The notes beneath the pieces are model-generated. The model worked only from the letters and a program-made list of their open reading frames with translations, searched no databases and was not told the DNA's origin. DNA of 42,005 bases, the filler included, from an uncultured virus (IMG/VR IMGVR_UViG_2061766007_001905) (Duplodnaviria; Heunggongvirae; Uroviricota; Caudoviricetes). It is 15 parts of one record of this genome, joined end to end, with 100 filler letters (N's around TTAATTAATTAA, not from the genome) between each part and the next. Parts side by side here need not be neighbours in the genome. Positions count along the whole stretch, not along the records: positions 15,704 to 20,966 come from IMGVR_UViG_2061766007_001905; 14 more parts are not named here. One strand, written 5' to 3'. Position 1 is the first letter of the stretch, and each line of letters opens with the position of its first letter. A program made the translations under genes and the position numbers. This document shows positions 1,272 to 42,005 of the stretch, one piece after another.

Positions 1272-1371
1272 NNNNNNNNNNNNNNNNNNNNNNNNNNNNN
1301 NNNNNNNNNNNNNNNTTAATTAATTAANNNNNNNNNNNNNNNNNNNNNNNNNNNNNNNNNNNNNNNNNNNN

Positions 1372-4300
1372 CGGCCAATACCATCGTTTGAAGACTGGTA
1401 TGCTGCATAACATGTTGCGTAGGTAGTATCTCCGGCATAGGCTGATGCAACTATATCGCAATACCTGCCAAAGCGTACCCTCGCGACATTGGTTGCTTGG
1501 TTCGTGGTTGCTACCTTGACACGCCGTTCGTTGCCGTCCTGTTGCAAGATGTTGTAATAATAGTCCGTAACCCAGGATGATACGGTGCTTGAACGGCGAC
1601 TTTTCTTGAAGGCAACGAAAGACTCGGCATTTAAACACCCCTTGTCAGTCCATTCTGTCGTTGCTGCAGTCCAACACTCAAGACCCCACATCTTGTTATA
1701 TTGGTTCTGCGCGATGTAAGACGTATCTCCGAAACCTATTGAATTTCTGACACCTGTTGTCTCACCAGCATTTCCACCACGTCCACAAAGGGTCTCAACG
1801 TCTCTTGTGCCGAACCATACCATCAACAGGTTTGCCATGTCCTTTGATGTCTCGTAAGGAACGGTAGAGTACTCTCCATTGACTACGCCCGTTTGGAATG
1901 TACGNNNNNNNNNNNNNNNNNNNNNNNNNNTTTGCTTGCAGGCAGGTTCCTTGCGTTTCCGTCTACGTCGTACTGCCAGCTGGTATTGGTCGTATTAGCA
2001 TTAGTTGTACCACGCGAAACAACCTTGCTGCTGATTGAGCGCAGTCCGCTCGTCGCCGTACCGCCCGTTGTAACTCCTGTAGCGAAACCCTGATAAACTC
2101 CGATGAGCTCTGCCTTGTGTTCAACCCAATCTGGCTCGATGGCTTCTACTTCGTCAGAGTCCGTGACAATCACTTCGACACCAGACTTTGATGCTGACGT
2201 GTTCCTGCAACAGAAATAGAGATACTTTGCACCGTCTGGAACGGATCTGAAGTCGTAGTCACCTTCATCGTTCATGAAGTCTGCAGGATTCCCGTTACTG
2301 CTCGCCATCTGCAATCTGCCGAAGGATATGGTGTTGCCTAACTCATCCGTGAATGCATGGGAGTATGAACTGTGGTTGATGCCTGGGAAACGTACTTGTC
2401 TCATGCCTTCAACCAGCACCCTGTACACCGAGATACTATTGTCGGTAACTATGAAATCGTCTATCGTTCCCTCACTTGAATCTCCCCACGTTATCGCTTT
2501 CCCGGCCCTGTATAGTGTATCGCCGATTTGGTGTCTTACCGTAGTTCCGCTCTGTGAGGGGCAGGTNNNNNNNNNNNNNNNNNNNNNNNNNNNNNNNNNN
2601 NNNNNNNNNNNNNTCGGCAAGTAAAGGAATATGTCATATCCCTCACCGTCTTGGTCATGCAGCGATATTGTTCCACCTTGTGCCGTATTTACAACACCTG
2701 CGGTTGCGTTTGGCCATCCCGTCTTCGCAAGTTTCGTGACGTTCATCTTGTGAGTTTGTGGATTAACCTTTCCTGCGCAGACCTGACACTTGTCGCGCAG
2801 CAGCTTAATGTGTCCGCTCGGTTCATAGTTTCCGATGTAAAACTCTTTTGTACCTTGCCCGTAAGATTGTGATGTCCTGTAGTCACGTCCTGTCTTGTTG
2901 TCCTCGTTGGTGATGTTCGCAGGGTCTGTTGTCGAGTCGTCGAATATGTAGTGGGAGAACTGGGAAGCTTCCAATTCGAGACCGCACTGCGTGAAGAAAC
3001 TTTTCATCGACTCAAAGTCATCCACAACGTCTATGAGCTGTACTTTACCGATAAGGGCCGGGTATGTACGTTCTGTACCATCATCATTGAGACCCATGAA
3101 ACCATTCATGAACGGTCGCAGCATGGTAGACATGACACGGCCGGACATTCCCTCTATGCGAACTTTGTTTACGTTCGGACACATCTGCATGAGATTTTGC
3201 CATGACAGGTAAGGACATTCTGCAAAGTTCAATGCTGTGATGTTTGATGTTCCTTGCAACGTCAAGCCGCTGTGATGCAACTTCGGCAAATAACGCAACG
3301 TGAGAGTTTGCAGTGTTGGCGGCATGACCAAAGTCTCAAGTGGAGAACCTTCAGGCAGAAGGATTCTCGTCAAACTTGTGCCACCAGCAAGGAACGTATT
3401 GAGACGCGTATGTTTTGAAATGTCGAATACGCCAGAAGTTCCAGTGTGTACTGCGGTCTGCCCCGTTATGTCAACCACTTCGAGTTTCGACGTGTTTCCA
3501 AGGGTTATCGGCGCATTTGACACGCCTACCGTCGCTGGCATGATAAGTTTAGACAGCATCGTGCAAAGGGAAAGCCCTACCGTACCATNNNNNNNNNNNT
3601 TGATACACGACGCACCGCCAAGCATCAGTGGGTCATTTGTTGCCAAAGTACCCGTGAAGTTGAGTTGTAAACTTTCACCAGCCGCCGCCCTTGACGGTCC
3701 TTGCAGCCATAAACCGTTTAGCTTGTAACCGAAATAATAGAGGTCACCGCTCTTCAACGTAAGACTTGACGGAGTGTCACCTGAATTTCGGACAACCGTG
3801 AATGTTATAACGTCTCCATTGTAGTTTCCTGCACTGTAGCGAGCGTCAAGAAGCCTTGCACGGTCAGTAATGAATTGGGTTCTGTGCAATTCCCTGTTTC
3901 CAGTGAGTGTATAGACGTAGTTCAAATCGTCAATGGTGTCGATGTACTTCAGCTTTCCAGACTTGTTGTNNNNNNNNNNNNNNNNNNNNNNNNNNNNNNN
4001 NNNNNNNNNNNNNNNNNNNNNNNNNNNNNNNNNNNNNNNNNNNCCTTCAATTCATCTTCAAAGTTGGCAAGAACAAGACACCACAGCCAACTGCTGTGAC
4101 CCTCGAATGCGTACTTCGCACGTTCGGAGTCATACGTATCACGGGTTACATTGTAAAGATAGACAAGGAACGCATCGTTACGGANNNNNNNNNNNNNNNN
4201 NNNNNNNNNNNNNNNNNNNCCATCCCAAGTACGCCAAAGAATATTTTTAGCCCTCTGGTCAACACTCGCCCAATAGTCGGTGAAGAGGTAGTATGTCAGC

Positions 4301-7300
4301 AGGTGGTTAATGTCAAAGTATTGGGAAGCCTCCGTCTTGAACTTATCCGACACCCACTTTGCCTTGCTTGCTTCGCTCCNNNNNNNNNNNNNNNNNNNNN
4401 NNNNNNNNNNNNNNNNNNNNNNNTTAATTAATTAANNNNNNNNNNNNNNNNNNNNNNNNNNNNNNNNNNNNNNNNNNNNCAATGACCCAATTGCTTAAAG
4501 CCTCGTCAGACGTTAGCGGAGTTCGATAATAACGTAAGCCACGTATTCTTACGTCTGCCTTGTCAGAGTCGATGGTAATTGAGGCTGGACTGTTCTGTCG
4601 CAACGACGTGATGTATGTATTTGCACGGCTTAGCACTCCATTGATGAAGAGCATAGCCAAGCCACGACCATTACGAACTGGCTGAACAATGAAGGCAAGA
4701 TGAATCCACTTGTCAATTGCAATGTTCATTGATACACCATGAGGACGCGTGACTTTCAACGGAACCTTATTCGATTCGTCAACGATATTGCCTTCATAGT
4801 CTATGTAGTTACCGTCAGCATCAATAAGGTCTTCTGCCGTCGTAATCTCTTCAACGCCTCCGAAATACAGACCCGCTTCCTCTGTCGTTATCTTTATACC
4901 CATTGGGTAGCCATTTCCTTCGTTGTCGCAAAGGCAATGGAGAATCGTTGCGCCACGCTCGATGACCTGGCTGACCATCATTTCCATTTCCAAAGTCATT
5001 CCTTGTTTCTGGATGGAGTAGTCGTTGGTCCCGTCAAGCACNNNNNNNNNNNNNNNNNNNNNNNNNNNNNNNNNNNNNNNNNNNNNNNNNNNNNNNCACC
5101 CGTTCGTTCTCCAGTCAACACCGATGAAGGAAGTAATTCCACCCCAATCTGCCGGGTTGGCTTCACCGTTTGAGCGACCTGTTGCAGTCAACTTAGTCAT
5201 ATAACCAATAGTCTCTTCCTCAGTGACGCCACTCGCTTGGTTGACCGTTACATTGAATGTACGAACGGAANNNNNNNNNNNNNNNNNNNNNNNNNNNNNN
5301 NNNNNNNNNNNNNNNNNNNNNNNNNNNNNNNNNNNNNNNNNNNNNNNNNNNNNNNNCAATGTCTGTGTAACGATTCCGTCAACGGCTATTTCAATCGTGC
5401 TGTTTAGAGTATCGCTATTCCATGCGGCAAGGTCAAATTCAAGTTCCTCGAATTGGTTCACGGCAACGGAAAGTGGCGTTGCCCCATAAGCAAATGGCAA
5501 TGGCATACTCGACAACTGAGCAACATCCGTGTGCAGTCGCAAGCCAACATAAGGCGTAATGCCTCCAGCCTTCAAAACGTCAACGCTGACCGCATTGCTC
5601 AACAAGCCAGCACTTTCCGCAATCAACTGCACGTTGTGTCTTCCGGCAGACAGATTTTCTGCTGTCAGATAGACATAGTTTCGACCCGTACCTGATATTG
5701 TATCGGTTGCATGTAATTGACCATCCAACCATACACGCAAAGTCGTACCAGTAGGAACGGTATAGGTATAGGGTATGGCAATCTGACCGTTTGAATTGGT
5801 ATATCCGTTACTCAACGCCAACTGACTTGCAGGGTCGAAAGTCGTAGCCAAATCCATTGTGATAACGACAACACTCTTCGAACCGCGACTGGTCTTCACC
5901 TCTTCGTCAATAGGTGTTGTTGCCACGACGCTAATGTTGACAGTTCCCGCCTGGTTGATGATTTCAGGACTAAGCGNNNNNNNNNNNNNNNNNNNNNNNN
6001 NNNNNNNNNNNNNNNNNNNNNNNNNNNNATATACGGTTGTCGTGCCAACCTTCACAGTTACGGCTACTGTCTGTGCAGGAAAGTTCACTCTCTCACTTGC
6101 GCCCTCAAACTTACGCAAGCAGTCGTAACCCCATCTAATACTGATGCTGTCACCAAGTTTTATTCTTGATGCAGTCAATAGTTCCGTTGTGATAACAGGC
6201 TGTATGATTTCTCCAACTTCCTGCGCTGCCGGAATCATTACGGTCAAGTCGTCCAGCATGTCACCTTGCGCATTAAAGAAGTTTAGTTCTATCATGGTGC
6301 CGTCCTGGNNNNNNNNNNNNNNNNNNNNNNNNNNNNNNNNNNNNNNNNNNNNTTAATTAATTAANNNNNNNNNNNNNNNNNNNNNNNNNNNNNNNNNNNN
6401 NNNNNNNNGCGAGTCAAGCTCCTCTTTCAGTTGGAAATACCGTGACACCTCGCCTGCGAACACGGTACGCAACAATGCCTTCTCCTTCGGGGAAAGAACG
6501 CCGTCAACGCCAGCATCGGCTACGAGCTTAGAGATGTACGAATCAATGGCACGTTTCAGTTCCTCAAGCGCCTCATTCATGTCCTTAATGAGTTGGCTGT
6601 ACACTGGTGCAAGCGTGTTACCATTGCATCGTGGCGTAAAGTCCGATGCATCCGAACCGTCAGCATAATCGTTCCATGCCGCTATCAAGGAAGGGTTCTG
6701 AAGGTTTACGCTGACTGACAATTGCGCTTCCGAAACCCATGCAGGATAACTATTCTCGTTGTATGATGAAAATGGCTCGGAACCATTCAGGAACAAGAAT
6801 AAGTCATAGAAAACGAGATTCGCCTTGTCAAACGCGCCAAAATAGGTATAACCATCACGGTACTCGCTGTCGTCATTGTAAATTCCGTAATCTTTCGCTT
6901 GTGAATTTAATGACCAATACCTATCTGATAATTCCTCAAACAATATTCTCAACCGTCTCTTTTCCGCACCGCCCGTTATAATATTGTCGGATGCCACATT
7001 GCTAATCATCTCGAGCGCGGTAACGGTGTCCACGTCACGTATCATGACCCATTGCCAAGAACCGTTCGCGTGCGTCCACTTCCACATCCTTCCACCCGTA
7101 GATGCGGGCTCGAGGGACGTGTCAAAGTACAGGGTCTTCGTGTGCTTGTCGTATTCCGACGAATCCCATGAACTCTCCGGCTGCGTCACGGACGGGCTGC
7201 CCTGCCCGTAGNNNNNNNNNNCATGCTCCTGTAATTTCGCCTTCAGAAACGTTTCGACGCGTTCCTTTTTCATGCCCCATTCAGTCCCGTCGGGATTTGT

Positions 7301-12907: not shown

Positions 12908-15900
12908 AGTTTCTTCTCAATCAAGTTATACATATTGTCTATCCGCGTAGTCATTGCAGAGATAATCTCCCTGTTTGACTTCTTGATGTCAAGCAGGTAC
13001 TCGTTCGTTGTCTTCACAAGTTCTCGGATCTCCCTCGTCGTAGAGCCGTTTGACGAAGTGATGTCGGCAATCGAGCGTAGGTTTTCGATAATTAACAACG
13101 CTTCCTTGTTGTCAGCCTTCGTCTCAAAGTTCACCACTGGAGACTGACTCTCTGGAACTATCACGGTTGGCGAATCTTTACCGTCCCACCTCNNNNNNNN
13201 NNNNNNNNNNNNNNNNNNTATTTCTCGAATTGGTCATAGGTAGCCTTATCAGCCATGACATTGGAAGCGTTCTTGTCTTCTGCAGCCGTTCCCGATGGTG
13301 TGATGATACCGATATCCTTCAACCTCTCCACATCTTCGGCACCTTGTCTCAGTATGTCATTGTNNNNNNNNNNNNNNNNNNNNNNNNNNNNNNNNNNNNN
13401 NNNNNNNNNNNNNNNNNNNNNNNNNNNGGAGAATACGTCATCATACCACTCTTTCAGTTGGTCCTTGTATTTCTGACCGACAAGGTTATTCAAGACCATC
13501 TTGTTGACCATCTGCCTCCAATTCTCGGCAACATCATCGAATACTTCCTCAGAACCATCGGCAAGGCTATAAATCGATTCCATGAAGGAATCCCACACNN
13601 NNNNNNNNNNNNNNNNNNNNNNNNNNNNNNNNNNNNNNNNNNNNNNNNNNNNNNNAAAGTTGGTCATATTGCTCGACAAGTTCCTCTATGGTCTTCCCAA
13701 GCGCACCCTCATTATATCCGAGTTCGTTTGAGATGTTATACCACAACTCCTTGTCTTGTTCCATGATGTCCTTGAAGGTCTTAGNNNNNNNNNNNNGAGT
13801 AGTTCCTGCCACGTACCAGCCGTAACGTTGTACTGCCTTCCGTAAGCGGTTATCTGGCCAAGAATGTCCTTCTGTTTATTAAGATGGTAATAGTCAGAGT
13901 GACCGCCACCATAATTGTCTGACAAGACGGAATCAATTTTCAAGACCGTTGTCTTTAGGTTGTCGCCGATGGAACTTACCAACTCCTCGTAAGCCTTGAT
14001 AGCGTCAGAGCCGTAGCTTTCACTCAATTGCTCAGTCAGCTTCTCGATAGCCTTTGTTGAACTTTCTATCTTGGCTGATAGTTCCTCTTGTATGGCAAGC
14101 TGCTCCTCATGGTTGGATGATCCGCGGAACATTCCGATGAACGAGTCAAAACCTTGTATTACGTTATTAGCCGCACCAAAGACATCGCCACTCGCAAGCG
14201 AGGAAATGGCATCGGTGAAATGTCCCGTTCCTTCGGCAAAGCCCTTCACGGCCACCCCGAAGTCTGTATTCGCAAGATTCAAGGTATCGACAAGCTCTGA
14301 CATGCTCTTCACGTTTTGGTTCGCAACGTTGACGATTCCCATCATGTCGAAGTTGCCAGTCGCATTCTTGAAGATGTCAGATATGGCCCCTCCTATGCCC
14401 TTGCCCTTGAAACCTCCGAGGATGTCCNNNNNNNNNNNNNNNNNNNNNNNNNNNNNNNNNNNNNNGGTGACGGCAATGATGGCAGTCCTGATGGCCTGGG
14501 TAATCTCGTCTATGACCTTTGCATTCTCGCTGCCTGCCGTTTCCAGTTTTGACAACCCTAACCCATCTATGATTTCATCGGCGCTCTTTGTCCTGAAATC
14601 NNNNNNNNNNNNNNNNNNNNNNNNNNNNNNNNNNNNNNNNNNNNNNNNNNNNNNNNNNNNNNNNNNNNNNNNNNNNNNNNNNNNNNNNNNNNNNNNNNNN
14701 NNNNNNNNNNNGTCCTCCGCCTGTGCAACTTGACGGGTAATCCTCTCCCTCTCCTTCAATGCAGGAATGAGGGATGACCATACGTTCGTGCGCTCGGAAA
14801 TCCTATCCTCTATTTCAAGAATCTTCTCAGCCAATACCTTAGCGTTCTCTGGCTCAATGTCGCCGACGTTAAGGGCATTCTTTAGCTTCTCCCTAAGAGA
14901 CCTGAGAGCGTTTGTCGATTGCAGTTCAAGGTCGTTAAAGACGGTTTCCCAATCGATGGACTTTTGTATCGATTCGAAGTTGATGGATGAGAGTGCCTGT
15001 TGTTTCTGCTGTTCCCATAAGGCTTTCTGCGTAGCATCGTTAGTCTCGGCAATCTTCTCGTCGTACTCCTTTGTTATTGCAAGGCGTTTCTCCTGGATGG
15101 TGCCGTACTCCTTGATGTAGTCGTATAGCTNNNNNNNNNNNNNNNNNNNNNNNNNNNNNNNNNNNNNNNNNNNNNNNNATGTTCGGCATTCTTCAGCTCC
15201 TCATCTGCCTCCAGTATAGCATCCTGCTCCTTTGTGAGCTTGATGGGGGCATTGTCATAGGCCTTTTGTGCCGCATTGAGCTTTTCCTGGCTCTCGGTAA
15301 GACGCTTGATGGTATCATCCAACTGCTGGGCCGAAATGTCGCCATTGCGGAATGCGTCGATGAACGCGTCTGANNNNNNNNNNNNNNNNNNNNNNNNNNN
15401 NNNNNNNNNNNNNNNNNNNNNNNNNNNNNNNNNNNNTCATAGGTGACTGTGGTGTCCTTCGGCATCAAGTCCAATGACTCCAATAGCTTGGAATAGTCCA
15501 CGTCGTACATCACTTCTATGGTACAGTCAGTCGGGATTTCTGGAAGTTCAACTTCACCGACCGTGGTATGTACCAATATCTCGCTTTCCGACGGAATGGC
15601 CCCNNNNNNNNNNNNNNNNNNNNNNNNNNNNNNNNNNNNNNNNNNNNTTAATTAATTAANNNNNNNNNNNNNNNNNNNNNNNNNNNNNNNNNNNNNNNNN
15701 NNNTCCTACGGCTTGCAGTGCGAGATTCTTTGTCCTAAACGATTCAAGAGCAGTGACAACCATAACTGCTGTCTTATACACGCCATAGGTACCAACAAGG
15801 CCCATTATTACACGTCCAACATTCTCGTAGTTCCGTACCAAAAGCGTTGCCGNNNNNNNNNNNNNNNNNNNNNNNNNNNNNNNNNNNNNNNNNNNNNNNN

Positions 15901-16814
15901 NNNNNNNNNNNNNNNNNNNNNNNNNNNNNNNNNNNNNNNNNNNNNNNNNNNNNNNNNNNNNCGCTGCGGAATGCCTCTTCCACCATCTCTACGGAAATGG
16001 CACCCTTCGACATCTCGTCTTTCAGCTCGGCTACTGACTTTCCCGTTTTCTCGCTGATGACCACAAGGGGATTGAAACCGGCGTTAATCATCTGCAGCAA
16101 GTCCTGTCCCATCAATTTGCCAGTTGACGACATTTGTGCAAAAGCAAGGGTGAGAGAATTGAATTTTTGCGAGTCGCCCATGCTGATATCGCCTATCTGC
16201 TTCAATATGGGCATCACCTTCTGCGCCTCGATGTTGAAGCCGAGCAGTGTTTGTGCGCCCTTTGCAAAGTCACCCATCATCATGGGGGTGTTAAGGGTGA
16301 ATTGCTTGATGTCCTCATACAGTTGCTTGCCGACATCAGTTCCCGCAAGCGTCTCGAACGATACTTGCAGGCTTTCCATTTCCTTGCGGACGNNNNNNNN
16401 NNNNNNNNNNNNNNNNNNNNNNNNNNNNNNNNNNNNNNNNNNNTGCCGAAGCTTACGGAACCCTCGTCGCCAGCCTTCTGCAGCTTCCTGCCGAGTTCGT
16501 CGGTTGCCCTGCCAGTCCTGTCGATGGCCTCTGTAGCCTTGTCGGCACCCTTGCGTTCAGCCTCGGCAGCGGCATGCCCTGCCTTGCCGGCCTTGCCCTG
16601 TGCTTGTGTCTGCCGTTCAATAGCTGCCGNNNNNNNNNNNNNNNNNNNNNNNNNNNNNNNNNNGTGCCTTGGTAGAGAACTGGTCAACGGTCATGCCCGT
16701 CTTCTTCACTTCCTCGGCCATGCCGTGAACTGCTTCCAGGAGTTTGTTCATGCCTTCTACAAACCCCTTTTCCTCCAATTCGGCAGAGAATGACAGTATT
16801 CCTTCGTCGTCCAT
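12904..16814 (-). CDS. Tail tape measure protein (fragmented)
   Basis: Tape-measure domain SFETLAG..TPMMMGDFAKGAQTLLGF..IGDISMGDSQKFNSLTLAFAQMSSTGKLMGQDLLQMINAGFNPL; long helical fragments; start MDDEGILSFSAELE. Confidence 0.92.
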
Positions 16815-16816
16815 GG

Positions 16817-17558
16817 TCAGTTGAATTTAACACGTTTAAGCATAGACTTCAGCTTCCCGAATGAGTNNNNNNNNNNNNNNNNNNNNNNNNNNNNNNNNNN
16901 NNNNNNNNNNNNNNNTCCTCACTTACGCCTTGCAGTTCGTCGTCGCTCAAGTATATGGATGTCATCTTGTCTGCAAGCATTAGGCGCAGGAAGGAGTAGG
17001 GGCGTTCGAAAAGTATTTCATCGTCACTGTAACCGATTTCCTTCAGCGGTCCAATGAACGAACCGAAAATGGTCAGTCCGCCGAAGGTCAGGTTGTTCTN
17101 NNNNNNNNNNNNNNNNNNNNNNNNNNNNNNNNNNNNNNNNGTTCGCGGTCGAGTCCAAGGTGCGCAATTACCTGTTCCGTCTTGTCTGCCGTGAGAACCT
17201 CAATCATCAAAGCCGACAAGTCACCGTCGGACAATTTGTTTATCAAGTTCCTGCGGACAGCAAGTTTCTGCTTATCGTGCAAATCCTTGTAGGTGTTCGG
17301 GGCGGTATGGATAGCAAGGATGGAGCAGCATTCCCTCCTGTGCCCGCTTACGATGNNNNNNNNNNNNNNNNNNNNNNNNNNNNNNNNNGTGTTGACGCCG
17401 ATGGCATCAAGATATGGCTGCAACTTGCACTTCTTGGCAAGTGTGACGGGGAAGAGGCGCAGGTGCTTGCGCCCTACGGAAAAATCGTGAGGCCTTGCGG
17501 TTATGATATCCGCAAGTTCCCTGTCAAGTTCCCTGTTTCCCATTTTCCTGTTTGCCAT
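16817..17558 (-). CDS. Putative tail assembly chaperone
   Basis: MANRKMGNRELDRELADIITARPHDFSVGRKHLRLFPVTLAK...; after gaps NNLTFGGLTIFG..YSFLRLMLADKMTSIYLSDDE..KRVKFN*; located between tail tube and tape measure. Confidence 0.65.
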
Positions 17559-17562
17559 AGAG

Positions 17563-17635
17563 TTGCGGAGGGAGGACTCGAACCCCCGACCTCTTGGTTA
17601 TGAGCCAAGCGAGCTGCCAACTGCTCCACACCGCG
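17563..17635 (-). tRNA. tRNA-Met(CAT), initiator (fMet)-type, no encoded CCA
   Basis: CGCGGTG TG GAGC AGTTGGCA GCTC G CTTGG CTCATAA CCAAG AGGTC GGGGG TTCGAGT CCTCC CTCCGCA A folds to a cloverleaf; C1:A72 mismatch, A11-U24 and A73 are initiator features. Confidence 0.92.
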
Positions 17636-17641
17636 ATATAA

Positions 17642-17667
17642 TGCCGACCGATAAACCCCGGTCGGCA
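17642..17667. repeat. Perfect 9-bp inverted repeat just upstream of the tRNA
   Basis: TGCCGACCG-ATAAACCC-CGGTCGGCA. Confidence 0.8.
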
Positions 17668-17684
17668 AGGGTAAATGAAAAAGC

Positions 17685-18002
17685 CTACCCGAGCTCGTAG
17701 TAGGTGGTGCCTTGAGCTGGCTCCGTGTCCCAAGAGNNNNNNNNNNNNNNNNNNNNNNNNNNNNNNNNNNNNNNNNNNNNNNNNNNNNNNNNNNNNNNNN
17801 NNNNTAGCTCTCGTCTGCGGAATCGTGCTCCTTGATGAGAACGTCGTCAAGGTTCCCCTCCGAGTCAGTGCTTCCCTTTGTCTTGTACAGGTAGTGAGCC
17901 ACAAGTCCGTCGGTAGAGTCTTGCTTCAGCGTAATCTTACGCGAGCAGTCTTTCAGTTCGGCATATACGGCTCCAACATTTTTCGGGATGATGGCACAAT
18001 CG
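17685..18002 (-). CDS. Major tail (tube) protein, C-terminal part
   Basis: DCAIIPKNVGAVYAELKDCSRKITLKQDSTDGLVAHYLYKTKG...SWDTEPAQGTTYYELG*; position after the tail-terminator-like gene; N-terminus in gap. Confidence 0.6.
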
Positions 18003-18775
18003 NNNNNNNNNNNNNNNNNNNNNNNNNNNNNNNNNNNNNNNNNNNNNNNNNNNNNNNNNNNNNNNNNNNNNNNNNNNNNNNNNNNNNNNNNNNNNNNNNN
18101 NNNNNNNNNNNNNNNNNNNNNNNNNNNNNNNNNNNNNNNNNNNNNNNNNNNNNNNNNNNNNNNNNNNNNNNNNNNNNNNNNNNNNNNNNNNNNNNNNNNN
18201 NNNNNNNNNNNNNNNNNNNNNNNNNNNNNNNNNNNNNNNNNNNNNNNNNNNNNNNNNNNNNNNNNNNNNNNNNNNNNNNNNNNNNNNNNNNNNNNNNNNN
18301 NNNNNNNNNNNNNNNNNNNNNNNNNNNNNNNNNNNNNNNNNNNNNNNNNNNNNNNNNNNNNNNNNNNNNNNNNNNNNNNNNNNNNNNNNNNNNNNNNNNN
18401 NNNNNNNNNNNNNNNNNNNNNNNNNNNNNNNNNNNNNNNNNNNNNNNNNNNNNNNNNNNNNNNNNNNNNNNNNNNNNNNNNNNNNNNNNNNNNNNNNNNN
18501 NNNNNNNNNNNNNNNNNNNNNNNNNNNNNNNNNNNNNNNNNNNNNNNNNNNNNNNNNNNNNNNNNNNNNNNNNNNNNNNNNNNNNNNNNNNNNNNNNNNN
18601 NNNNNNNNNNNNNNNNNNNNNNNNNNNNNNNNNNNNNNNNNNNNNNNNNNNNNNNNNNNNNNNNNNNNNNNNNNNNNNNNNNNNNNNNNNNNNNNNNNNN
18701 NNNNNNNNNNNNNNNNNNNNNNNNNNNNNNNNNNNNNNNNNNNNNNNNNNNNNNNNNNNNNNNNNNNNNNNNNNN

Positions 18776-41022: not shown

Positions 41023-41123
41023 ANNNNNNNNNNNNNNNNNNNNNNNNNNNNNNNNNNNNNNNNNNNNTTAATTAATTAANNNNNNNNNNNNNNNNNNNNN
41101 NNNNNNNNNNNNNNNNNNNNNNN

Positions 41124-41857
41124 AAGATGATCCTTGTGTATTTACCCTGCATGTGCACCTCTCCCCATGTCATCTTTGTAATGTCAGAGCGTCGAAGCCC
41201 TGTCAGGCATGAGAAAAGAAAAGCCCGTTTCACCCCCGGCCAGTTGCATTCTGTCTGGGACAGTCTCCTTAGCTCGTCGATGGTGAGGTACATGCGCTTG
41301 CTTTCCTCTGCCTTGAAGTTCTCTATTCCCCTCATGGGGTTTTGGAGTATAACNNNNNNNNNNNNNNNNNNNNNNNNNNNNNNGTAGGACAGCTTGGAGT
41401 TGCGGGCAAGAGGGTGGTAGTCGAGACGCGTCCTGTAGTCCGGAGACCATGCCTTTGCGTCGTTCTCCAGGTAGTCCCTGAATCCCTGCACCCATTCTGG
41501 GGTGATGTCGGCAAAGGTGATGTCCTGGTTCTTCTCGTATATCTCCAGATGCTTCAGGCACGAGTACCAGTTCCCCCAGTTGCCGCGTGACTCAGGTCCG
41601 CCCCTGCGTTTCTCGCACATGGCCTTGTAGTAGTCGAAGAATCGGATGTCATTCTCTGGCTGATGGAAACCGAACTTACCGTTCTGATAGTCAACGATGC
41701 GCTTTGCCCGGATTGCCTCGGCCAGCTTCATCGTCTNNNNNNNNNNNNNNNNNNNNNNNNNNNNNNNNNNNNNNNNNNNNNNNNNNNNNNNNNNNNNNNN
41801 NNNNNNNNNNNNNNNNNNNNNNNNNNNNNNNNNNNNNNNNNNNNNNNNNNNTGTCAT
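41124..41857 (-). CDS. Tyrosine recombinase / integrase (Bacteroidales type with arm-binding and SAM-like domains), C-terminus missing
   Basis: LAEAIRAKR; ITFADITPEWVQGFRDYL; NPMRGI..RMYLTIDEL; AFLFSCLTGLRRSDI (catalytic Arg, box I). Confidence 0.93.
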
Positions 41858-41860
41858 AAC

Positions 41861-41910
41861 TTTGTTGCTTTTGTTGCTTATTGCGTATCGAGCAACAAAA
41901 TAACAACAAA
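41861..41910. repeat. Direct plus inverted TTTGTTGCT repeats upstream of integrase (candidate arm-type sites)
   Basis: TTTGTTGCT TTTGTTGCT tattgcgtatcg AGCAACAAA at AACAACAAA. Confidence 0.6.
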
Positions 41911-42005
41911 AAAATGACAAATGGAATAAAATGAACTAAAAATGATATAATTATAACGATATTTAAGAAATCCTTTATTTATCGTGGTTATTTGAGTTTT
42001 TTTGT

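Follow-up and report, generated by a model that had tools for sequence, protein, structure and literature searches.

The stretch of DNA analysed here, referred to throughout as the window, comprises 42,005 nt (filler included) of an uncultured virus of the Caudoviricetes (IMGVR_UViG_2061766007_001905), and represents a phage genome of ~42 kb with 50 % G+C that is interrupted by 121 runs of N (masked stretches). Nearly all of its genes, as judged by PHROG matches, lie on the minus strand. The subject of this analysis is a transfer RNA (tRNA)-shaped element between the tail-tube gene and the gene that follows it in the tail operon, beginning 49 nt past the tube-gene stop codon and ending 4 nt ahead of the next ATG. 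Almost every relative keeps a tRNA-shaped RNA at this junction, and thus the element probably marks a site at which the tRNA-trimming enzymes of the host cut the tail message. Its conserved role in the phage family is accordingly read as that of a tRNA punctuation mark, similar to the t-elements of plant mitochondria and filled in the window by a host-derived initiator-type tRNA gene, a reading to which a probability of about one half is assigned. The features at the junction, in operon order, are as follows.

17685..18272, minus strand: tail-tube gene; stop codon TAG at 17687-17685, start estimated from the 585-nt length in relative L014 and lying within a masked stretch
17642..17667, minus strand: GC-rich hairpin with a 10-bp stem and a 6-nt loop, ending 6 nt ahead of tRNA position 1
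17563..17635, minus strand (the operon strand): initiator-type tRNA-Met(CAU), positions 1-73, from ARAGORN and Rfam
17559..17562, minus strand: spacer CTCT between A73 and the ATG; C74 is present and no CCA is encoded
16815..17558, minus strand: downstream gene (phrog_11996, 6.5e-12); ATG at 17558-17556, end approximate owing to masking
13161..16814, minus strand: tape-measure gene, in fragments between masked stretches; phrog_9959 (3.6e-46) on 15774-16379, with a further match at 13161-13679

ARAGORN identifies a single tRNA in the window, a tRNA-Met(CAT) at 17562-17635 on the minus strand, and Rfam model RF00005 matches 17563-17635 with 58.1 bits (E-value 3.8e-10; gathering score 29). An earlier, sequence-only reading of this DNA had placed a full cloverleaf on the operon strand between the tube stop at 17685 and the downstream ATG at 17558, with a 4-nt gap, and both programs and the sequence itself agree with it; the formyl-methionine (fMet) marks that it listed, C1:A72 and A11-U24, are likewise present in every detail. 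Within the acceptor stem, C1 stands opposite A72 and U6 opposite U67, both non-standard according to Rfam, alongside the pairs G2:C71, C3:G70 and G4:C69. The D stem (GAGC/GCUC) contains A11:U24, as expected of an initiator, and the anticodon stem (C27:G43, U28:A42, U29:A41, G30:C40 and G31:C39) closes the loop CUCAUAA, in which, again as in initiators, CAU occupies a 7-nt loop with U33 and A37. The marks of formylation known from E. coli work are an unpaired 1:72, G2:C71, C3:G70 and a discriminator A73, and all of these are found, position 1:72 being without a Watson–Crick pair. The departure concerns positions 29-31:39-41, for which three consecutive G-C, or at least purine:pyrimidine, pairs are given as the initiator rule in an extract of PMC5389676, and at which U29:A41 of the window tRNA flips the purine:pyrimidine order. 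The middle G-C pair of the anticodon stem is also lost in relatives L083, L087 and L051, and the window tRNA is found in identical form in the relative L001/L014. Judged by its sequence, the window element could still be a working initiator tRNA.

A comparison with the initiators of the probable host clade places these features in context. Six relatives sit in rumen and gut genome bins assigned to Prevotella, Prevotellaceae and Bacteroidaceae. A Bacteroidota host fits the BACON domain (PF13004, 1.2e-6) found at the end of the major head protein in relative L005 (L005:2-694). Initiator tRNAs from three Bacteroidales bins (L093:1503-1578, L094:1503-1576 and L095:1503-1576) are 84-87 % identical to the window tRNA and match it at 1:72, 2:71, 3:70, 4:69 and 73, with compensatory changes at 28:42 and in the T stem, and with A6:U67 where the window has U6:U67. 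All three have A29:U41, G30:C40 and G31:C39, i.e. two G-C pairs with the purine:pyrimidine order kept, and only one of the three has an encoded CCA. The sequence-only reading had listed U29-A41, U6:U67 and the lack of CCA as departures from an initiator. Each of these is indeed present, but a stem with two G-C pairs and a missing CCA are normal for the host initiators, and so the phage-specific departures reduce to U6:U67 and the flipped U29:A41. Initiators of the au/GC/GC type are listed in the extract of PMC5389676 for alpha-proteobacteria and some mycoplasmas only, with the purine:pyrimidine order stressed as kept. As a separate observation, the A29:U41 form seen in the host initiators is a variant absent for Bacteroidales from that list, and two of the three carry a mismatch at 52:62 in the T stem. 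With regard to the trimming enzymes, ribonuclease Z (RNase Z; TIGR02651) is present in 5/5 host-clade bins, above the curated cut-off in four of them, and in one bin its gene lies ~1.5 kb from the initiator tRNA gene (G002 contig C1, 17919-20427).

The position of the element was surveyed amongst relatives. The downstream protein, used as a query, retrieved 12 loci, and a 10-sequence profile (A1) retrieved 79 (27 viral contigs, 6 genomes and 46 metagenomes), which collapse to 59 distinct upstream regions. A tRNA-shaped element directly precedes the downstream gene in 53 of these 59. ARAGORN places an element just ahead of the downstream gene in 40, Rfam adds five (L034, L049 and L057, together with L039 and L031 via their twin loci L006 and L009), and an acceptor-plus-T-arm finder adds six (L028, L029, L041, L071, L076 and L088). 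On shuffled sequences this finder gave a correctly placed match in 37 of 1180 cases and a score of at least 13 in 5 of 1180, and L041 scores only 12; L029, L041, L076 and L088 have no Rfam match at E ≤ 1. L020 displays the 3′ part of an element, the remainder being cut off by the contig end, and L021 has only a minihelix of acceptor and T arm, judged by eye and without an Rfam match. In L089 the element follows the tube gene, with an extra open reading frame (ORF) between it and the downstream gene. The same layout recurs in human-gut record MT835773, found by protein search and unannotated, in which the hairpin is followed by a tRNA shape that has a long insertion, and then by a leader. When 16900-18000 was searched as DNA against a phage collection, the matches were confined to the tRNA, in unrelated phages, and no cultured relative was returned.

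The sequence-only reading had suggested looking for a tRNA at this exact position in related phages and comparing the conservation of shape with that of identity elements. The position proves to be conserved, and it is the tRNA shape that is kept, whereas no single decoding identity is. ARAGORN assigns Met(CAT) in 11 distinct loci, including those of the window's clade, Gly(TCC) in five (with G, A or T at position 33), and Ala, Asn, Gln and 'SeC' once each, as well as 19 elements with 6- or 8-nt anticodon loops; a standard 7-nt loop is called in only 21 of 51 elements, and several of these are without U33. A further 11 elements have enlarged or reduced anticodon arms, at total lengths of 65-131 nt, and some that carry 35-60-nt insertions, or consist of a bare minihelix, retain the acceptor and T arm. 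Across 36 elements of standard length (A3), 90.7 % of cells pair, versus 61.3 % in shuffles, with values of 91 % for the acceptor, 96 % for the D, 78 % for the anticodon and 99 % for the T helix. The invariant or near-invariant columns, T8, G10, A14, G18, A21, G53, T54, T55, C56, G57, A58 and C61, are those of the tRNA core and elbow. Within one homologous subfamily (A5; nine rows, 80 % column identity), in which 8-nt loops are found in 7/9 members, all four helices persist with 95 % of cells paired, and 13 of 20 pairs have changed on both sides, a level reached by 0/500 shuffles. These non-decoding elements are thus under selection as RNA folds. As expected of punctuation, the tRNA-like fold has the same sense as the operon and is flanked closely by the end of one reading frame and the start of the next, and its acceptor, T arm and elbow are conserved independently of decoding ability.

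These comparisons also bear on the proposal that a plain phage tRNA gene has simply been passed down at this site without any special role, and that the odd forms in relatives are decaying pseudogenes. Lone phage tRNA genes are common, and gene order alone would hold such a gene in the same intergenic gap. Decay, however, does not sit well with non-decoding forms that keep four helices by compensatory change, nor with precise replacement by other tRNA shapes or with a start codon that abuts the element. Moreover, the element DNA is more similar than either flanking gene in 36/36 pairs of the initiator type, 10/10 of the Ala-acceptor type and 6/6 of the Gly-like type. The clade with insertions retains the acceptor and T arm only, and L028-L029 have an identity of 0.63 in the element versus 0.81 in the downstream gene. 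An ordinary gene is therefore considered an unlikely explanation.

With regard to the start codon, the first in-frame ATG lies 1, 2 or 4 nt past the discriminator in 7, 18 and 10 loci, respectively, i.e. in 35 of 51. Of these 35, 31 lack any further in-frame ATG, GTG or TTG ahead of the conserved protein motif, the exceptions with an additional start being L014 (ATG at codon 6), L018, L051 and L088. C is the base next to the discriminator in 50 of 51 loci; a full CCA is encoded in 2 of 51. Proteins of the short-spacer class have an N-terminus that is 3-5 residues longer, and their first ten codons are 40-60 % A, compared with 27-40 % for the long-spacer class. Bacteroidia ribosomes do not use Shine–Dalgarno (SD) pairing and make use of A-rich leaders (extracts of PMC7797042 and PMC13000457), and thus, as long as a folded tRNA stands 1-4 nt ahead of the ATG, a conventional loading site is lacking and the fold would block the loading of ribosomes. 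The family in this way flags translation starts in Bacteroidia that lack room for the usual A-rich leader. Leaderless mRNAs do occur in Bacteroides and Segatella (extracts of PMC7366714 and bioRxiv 10.1101/2024.04.05.588293), with 35-36 such transcripts given for Segatella copri in the latter.

The hairpin ahead of the element is similarly widespread: 48 of 51 loci have a stem–loop of −5 kcal/mol or better whose end lies 0-10 nt upstream of the element, and the fold of the spacer reaches z ≤ −2 in 37 of 51. The hairpin spacer of the window folds at −18.9 kcal/mol, with a z of −4.9 against shuffles (computed on L014, whose sequence is the same here). It has the GC-rich stem–loop of an intrinsic terminator but not the run of U: a terminator scan of 17300-17740 returned 0 sites, the hairpin tail is AUUAUAU without a T-run, and a T-run of at least 5 follows the hairpin in only ~4 loci (L021, L034, L058 and L088). 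A hairpin-loop motif of GGGU with A/U-rich bases (GGGUUUAU, GGGUAUAU, GGGUCAAA) recurs in the window (17652-17657) and in L015, L017, L018, L024, L026, L034 and L107, a recurrence that would suit a specific contact or a small pseudoknot better than a purely stabilising hairpin.

A stable fold at 1-4 nt from the start codon, as found in those 35 loci, might also act without being cut, either as a structural block that holds translation from the chaperone and tape-measure genes at a low level, or by shielding the 5′ or 3′ end of one of the two messages. Tail assembly uses far more copies of the tube protein than of the downstream proteins, and a block would suit this. For that purpose, however, a plain hairpin would suffice, whilst cleavage of any well-formed tRNA shape by ribonuclease P (RNase P) and RNase Z is to be expected, and the latter enzyme is encoded in the host-clade bins. 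Furthermore, the elbow nucleotides that these two enzymes read (G18, T54, T55, C56 and A58) are the best-conserved columns of all. A role for the uncut fold is consequently held to be improbable.

Under the punctuation reading, transcription of the tube gene would continue through the GC hairpin, which lacks a U-run, and into the tRNA as part of the late tail operon. Both RNase P and RNase Z act on well-formed tRNA shapes within transcripts, so that excision is expected if the operon is transcribed through the hairpin. Host RNase P would cut at tRNA position 1, leaving an abundant tube mRNA that ends a few nucleotides past a protective hairpin, and host RNase Z would cut after the discriminator, releasing a chaperone/tape-measure mRNA with a leader of 1-4 nt; for the window this leader would be 4 nt, or 19 nt if counted from the second ATG. 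The two halves of the operon would in this way gain separate stabilities and translation rates, with a predicted effect on the ratio of the tail proteins. As the window RNA keeps all of the initiator marks checked other than the purine:pyrimidine order at 29:41, it may, once excised, double as an extra initiator tRNA. Punctuation had already been proposed in the sequence-only reading, and it is partly supported: the conserved position, the conserved shape and the ATG that abuts the element in most loci speak for it.

Several observations weigh against this reading. Minimum-free-energy folding of 17540-17690 recovers the hairpin but not a clean cloverleaf (z −1.48). Five distant relatives (L044, L045, L084, L086 and L091; ≤47 % identity) have no tRNA-shaped element, and at least L044 and L084/L086 possess a hairpin with a T-run and an ordinary leader in its place. 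In 16 of 51 loci the ATG lies 15-31 nt past the discriminator, affording ordinary leaders, and leaderless translation is hence not the whole story. Bacteroides 5′ untranslated regions (UTRs) have a mode of 23 nt, with 3.7 % under 10 nt (extract of PMC7366714); the long spacers of these 16 loci match that usual length, and the short leaders would be rarities. The window itself has a second in-frame ATG at codon 6 of the downstream gene, use of which would give an ordinary 19-nt leader. Public RNA runs share ≤0.09 of sampled words and exist as contigs, which show neither ends nor strand; co-transcription and cleavage are accordingly predictions. Part of the covariation across the 36 standard-length elements would be inherited if the acceptor types derive from different cellular tRNAs, and it is for this reason that the pairing count was repeated within the A5 subfamily. 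Finally, the core UCAUAC of the 8-nt loop is shared by 7/9 A5 rows (L019, L035, L036, L043, L072, L055 and L059), and similar 8-nt loops are found in the Ala-acceptor group (L025, L042, L064, L065, L067 and L077). Anticodon loops are thus kept within subfamilies whilst the stems change by compensation, which indicates that the loop itself is constrained; given that RNase P and RNase Z need no anticodon loop, some further role is suggested.

Such a role could lie in trans, the selected function being that of an extra or nuclease-resistant initiator tRNA in the window (the sequence-only reading had named VapC as an example of such a nuclease), and of a non-decoding decoy or regulator in the relatives, aimed for instance at anticodon nucleases or at translation initiation, with cutting of the mRNA as a side effect. 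The window tRNA keeps C1/A72, G2:C71, C3:G70, A11:U24, the CAU loop and A73, in addition to its close identity to the host initiators, and phage-encoded initiator tRNAs are common elsewhere. The retention of loops across compensatory stem changes points in the same direction, as do five elements with loops resembling the anti-SD sequence. Set against this, the loops differ wholly between subfamilies, and elements with 35-60-nt insertions or reduced to a minihelix nonetheless retain the acceptor and T arm. A function in trans would also leave both the start codon abutting the element and the constant hairpin unexplained, and no toxin or nuclease partner turned up, although none was searched for. 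This alternative is regarded as possible, and as the most credible of those weighed here, but not as probable.

The loops themselves merit separate description. Anticodon loops of eight members recall those of frameshift-suppressor tRNAs. L025:1418-1490 and the corresponding elements of L042, L064, L065, L067 and L077 combine an Ala-type acceptor (G3:U70) with a CAUA-bearing 8-nt loop. As G3:U70 is the identity rule for alanine, these elements would, if charged, be unusual mis-decoding or non-decoding Ala tRNAs. A different feature, CCUCC within an enlarged anticodon loop, is observed in five elements of 80-89 nt (L022:1398-1479, L057:367-448, L034:1389-1477, L039:1412-1493 and L049:1404-1483) that represent three independent lineages. 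The canonical anti-SD is quoted as 3′-UUCCUCCA-5′ in an extract of PMC7797042, and the L057 loop (...AUCACCUCCUUUCU...) contains the 11-nt ACCUCCUUUCU, the complement of the SD oligonucleotide in that extract. The CCUCC loops may therefore mimic the 16S 3′ tail that Bacteroidia ribosomes hide. A short-pattern search of three genome bins for the host 16S 3′ end gave two matches, neither of them rRNA, and the anti-SD comparison consequently rests on the sequence quoted in the PMC7797042 extract. GGAGG partners for these loops near start codons showed no pattern, or were absent, in the five loci. Pairing of the anticodon loop with the adjacent start codon was also considered and dropped, the spacer being too short in cis and no consistent co-variation being apparent on an informal look. 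A combined scheme can be envisaged, in which tRNA punctuation with a leaderless chaperone/tape-measure message is joined by excised RNAs (the extra initiator in the window, the CAU 8-nt loops in some relatives and the anti-SD mimics in others) that act in trans and retune the SD-blind Bacteroidia ribosome late in infection; in its entirety this is rated as rather improbable.

Beyond the junction, two further features of the window are placed by coordinates, with PHROG matches to replication genes, portal and major head genes lying further in from the integrase.

1320-6295: large distal tail proteins (PHROG matches)
41072-41920: integrase (PHROG match)

Identification of the genes flanking the element is complicated by masking. 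The tail-tube gene is mostly N in the window (17737-17804 and 18003-18775 are masked), and the end of the frame upstream of the element reads ...TYYELG followed by the stop. Its homologue in L014, a relative 98 % identical to the window, has 195 amino acids; aligned with 37 relatives (A4), it gave an AlphaFold model with a predicted local distance difference test score (pLDDT) of 87.8, the best Foldseek matches of which are tail-tube proteins of siphophages (8gtb_A, probability 1.0, with a weak E-value of 2.4e-3). Of the two gene names used in the sequence-only reading, 'tail-tube' is thus supported by this fold match, whereas 'chaperone' (for a tail assembly chaperone) derives from position only. 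The downstream gene is, in 12 relatives, one continuous ORF of 240-248 amino acids directly before the tape-measure gene, and its sole PHROG match is phrog_11996, of unknown function. A fold model of its protein from 10 sequences was too poor to use (pLDDT 51.9), and a protein atlas gave unnamed clusters together with a weak DUF6246 lead at 0.87. Pfam has no match for the tube, chaperone or neck proteins of L005. Runs of N in the window differ in length from the corresponding stretches of the 98 %-identical relative (33 N versus 39 nt and 68 N versus 78 nt), from which it follows that reading frames cannot be traced across masked stretches, and that apparent frameshifts in the window tail genes are artefacts of masking.

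The history of the element was read from a tree built rapidly by maximum likelihood from 59 rows of the downstream protein. Element types cluster on this tree: 17 changes suffice, compared with an average of 37.6 after shuffling. Elements of the initiator type are found in the window's clade as well as on the deepest branch (L087 and L092), and this type may hence be the ancestral state. In L092, from the most distant clade, tandem tRNAs are seen (L092:457-608), namely a regular-looking tRNA-Ala(TGC) with an initiator-type element 5 nt later. L039 and L058 are sisters with a support of 100 and share the same hairpin and protein start, yet their elements, with an anti-SD-like loop and of the initiator type, respectively, are unrelated; this contrast indicates that whole elements have been swapped precisely. 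The identities of the tube and downstream genes often conflict within pairs, at 0.56 versus 0.85 for L025-L065 and 0.83 versus 0.62 for L039-L049, as well as in L019-L072, which makes the junction a frequent recombination boundary between tail modules.

Exchange of this kind at the junction might suggest a role at the level of DNA, either as a patch that promotes recombination of tail modules or as a leftover attachment site. Covariation, though, reflects selection on RNA pairing and not on DNA identity. An attachment site was considered and rejected, as the integrase is 23 kb away and the element is internal to the tail genes in the bacterial contigs L042, L043 (195 kb) and L046; a second copy of the tRNA 3′ half was sought in the unmasked sequence of the window and none was found. 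The sequence-only reading, which had judged an attachment remnant unlikely on the grounds of distance from the integrase, was correct on this point, and a DNA-level role in either form is deemed very unlikely.

No report of tRNA-like punctuation in a phage tail operon was found amongst open-access papers and preprints. Should the proposed cleavages be true, a bacterial virus would split its operon by tRNA punctuation, a principle so far documented for organelles. The tube message would be plentiful and capped by a hairpin, and that of the following tail genes scarce and almost without a leader, which would explain in simple physical terms how one transcript can supply tube, chaperone and tape-measure proteins in very different amounts. 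It would also show real tRNA genes evolving into non-decoding processing signals, in a phage family that spans everything from the intact initiator tRNA of the window to a bare minihelix.

Amongst other phages, Stenotrophomonas phage vB_Sm_QDWS359 and Xanthomonas phage Xoo-sp2 carry tRNA-fMet-like genes that are 84-85 % identical to the window tRNA. These differ in location, being placed after the large terminase gene and next to other tRNAs or genes of nucleotide metabolism, whereas the window tRNA lies in the tail operon beside a start codon. In the metY-nusA-infB and tufB operons of E. coli, a tRNA (an initiator in the case of metY) is co-transcribed with downstream protein genes and excised by RNase P and other nucleases. 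There, the tRNA is the product that matters, sits at the head of the operon and is followed by a normal leader, whereas many of the phage relatives carry non-decoding shapes and have a start codon that abuts the element. In MALAT1/mascRNA, a protective structure lies just upstream of a tRNA-like fold, and the RNase P cut makes a stable 3′ end; that system is a eukaryotic nuclear RNA and employs a triple helix, whilst the phage junction has a simple GC hairpin and a coding message on the 3′ side.

The closest parallels are organellar. In animal mitochondria, tRNAs separate reading frames, and their excision gives messages that start at or next to the AUG. This is a strategy for the whole genome, however, whereas the phage case concerns a single junction in a bacterial virus that would rely on host enzymes. 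In plant mitochondria, RNase P and RNase Z form mRNA ends at tRNAs and t-elements, including one rps4 5′ end at +2 (extract of Forner et al. 2007, PMC1920247). As proposed for the phage family, tRNA or tRNA-like folds lie within longer transcripts there, and their borders set 3′ ends (RNase P) and 5′ ends (RNase Z). The likeness extends to the mixture of canonical tRNAs and non-canonical cloverleaves, the GGTTCRANYCC arm, the nearby stem–loops and, as predicted for the phage, a 5′ end close to a frame (at +2). Unlike the plant-mitochondrial elements, which are organellar and whose transcript ends have been mapped, the phage element is known from sequence, is fixed between two tail genes and is always preceded by a hairpin.

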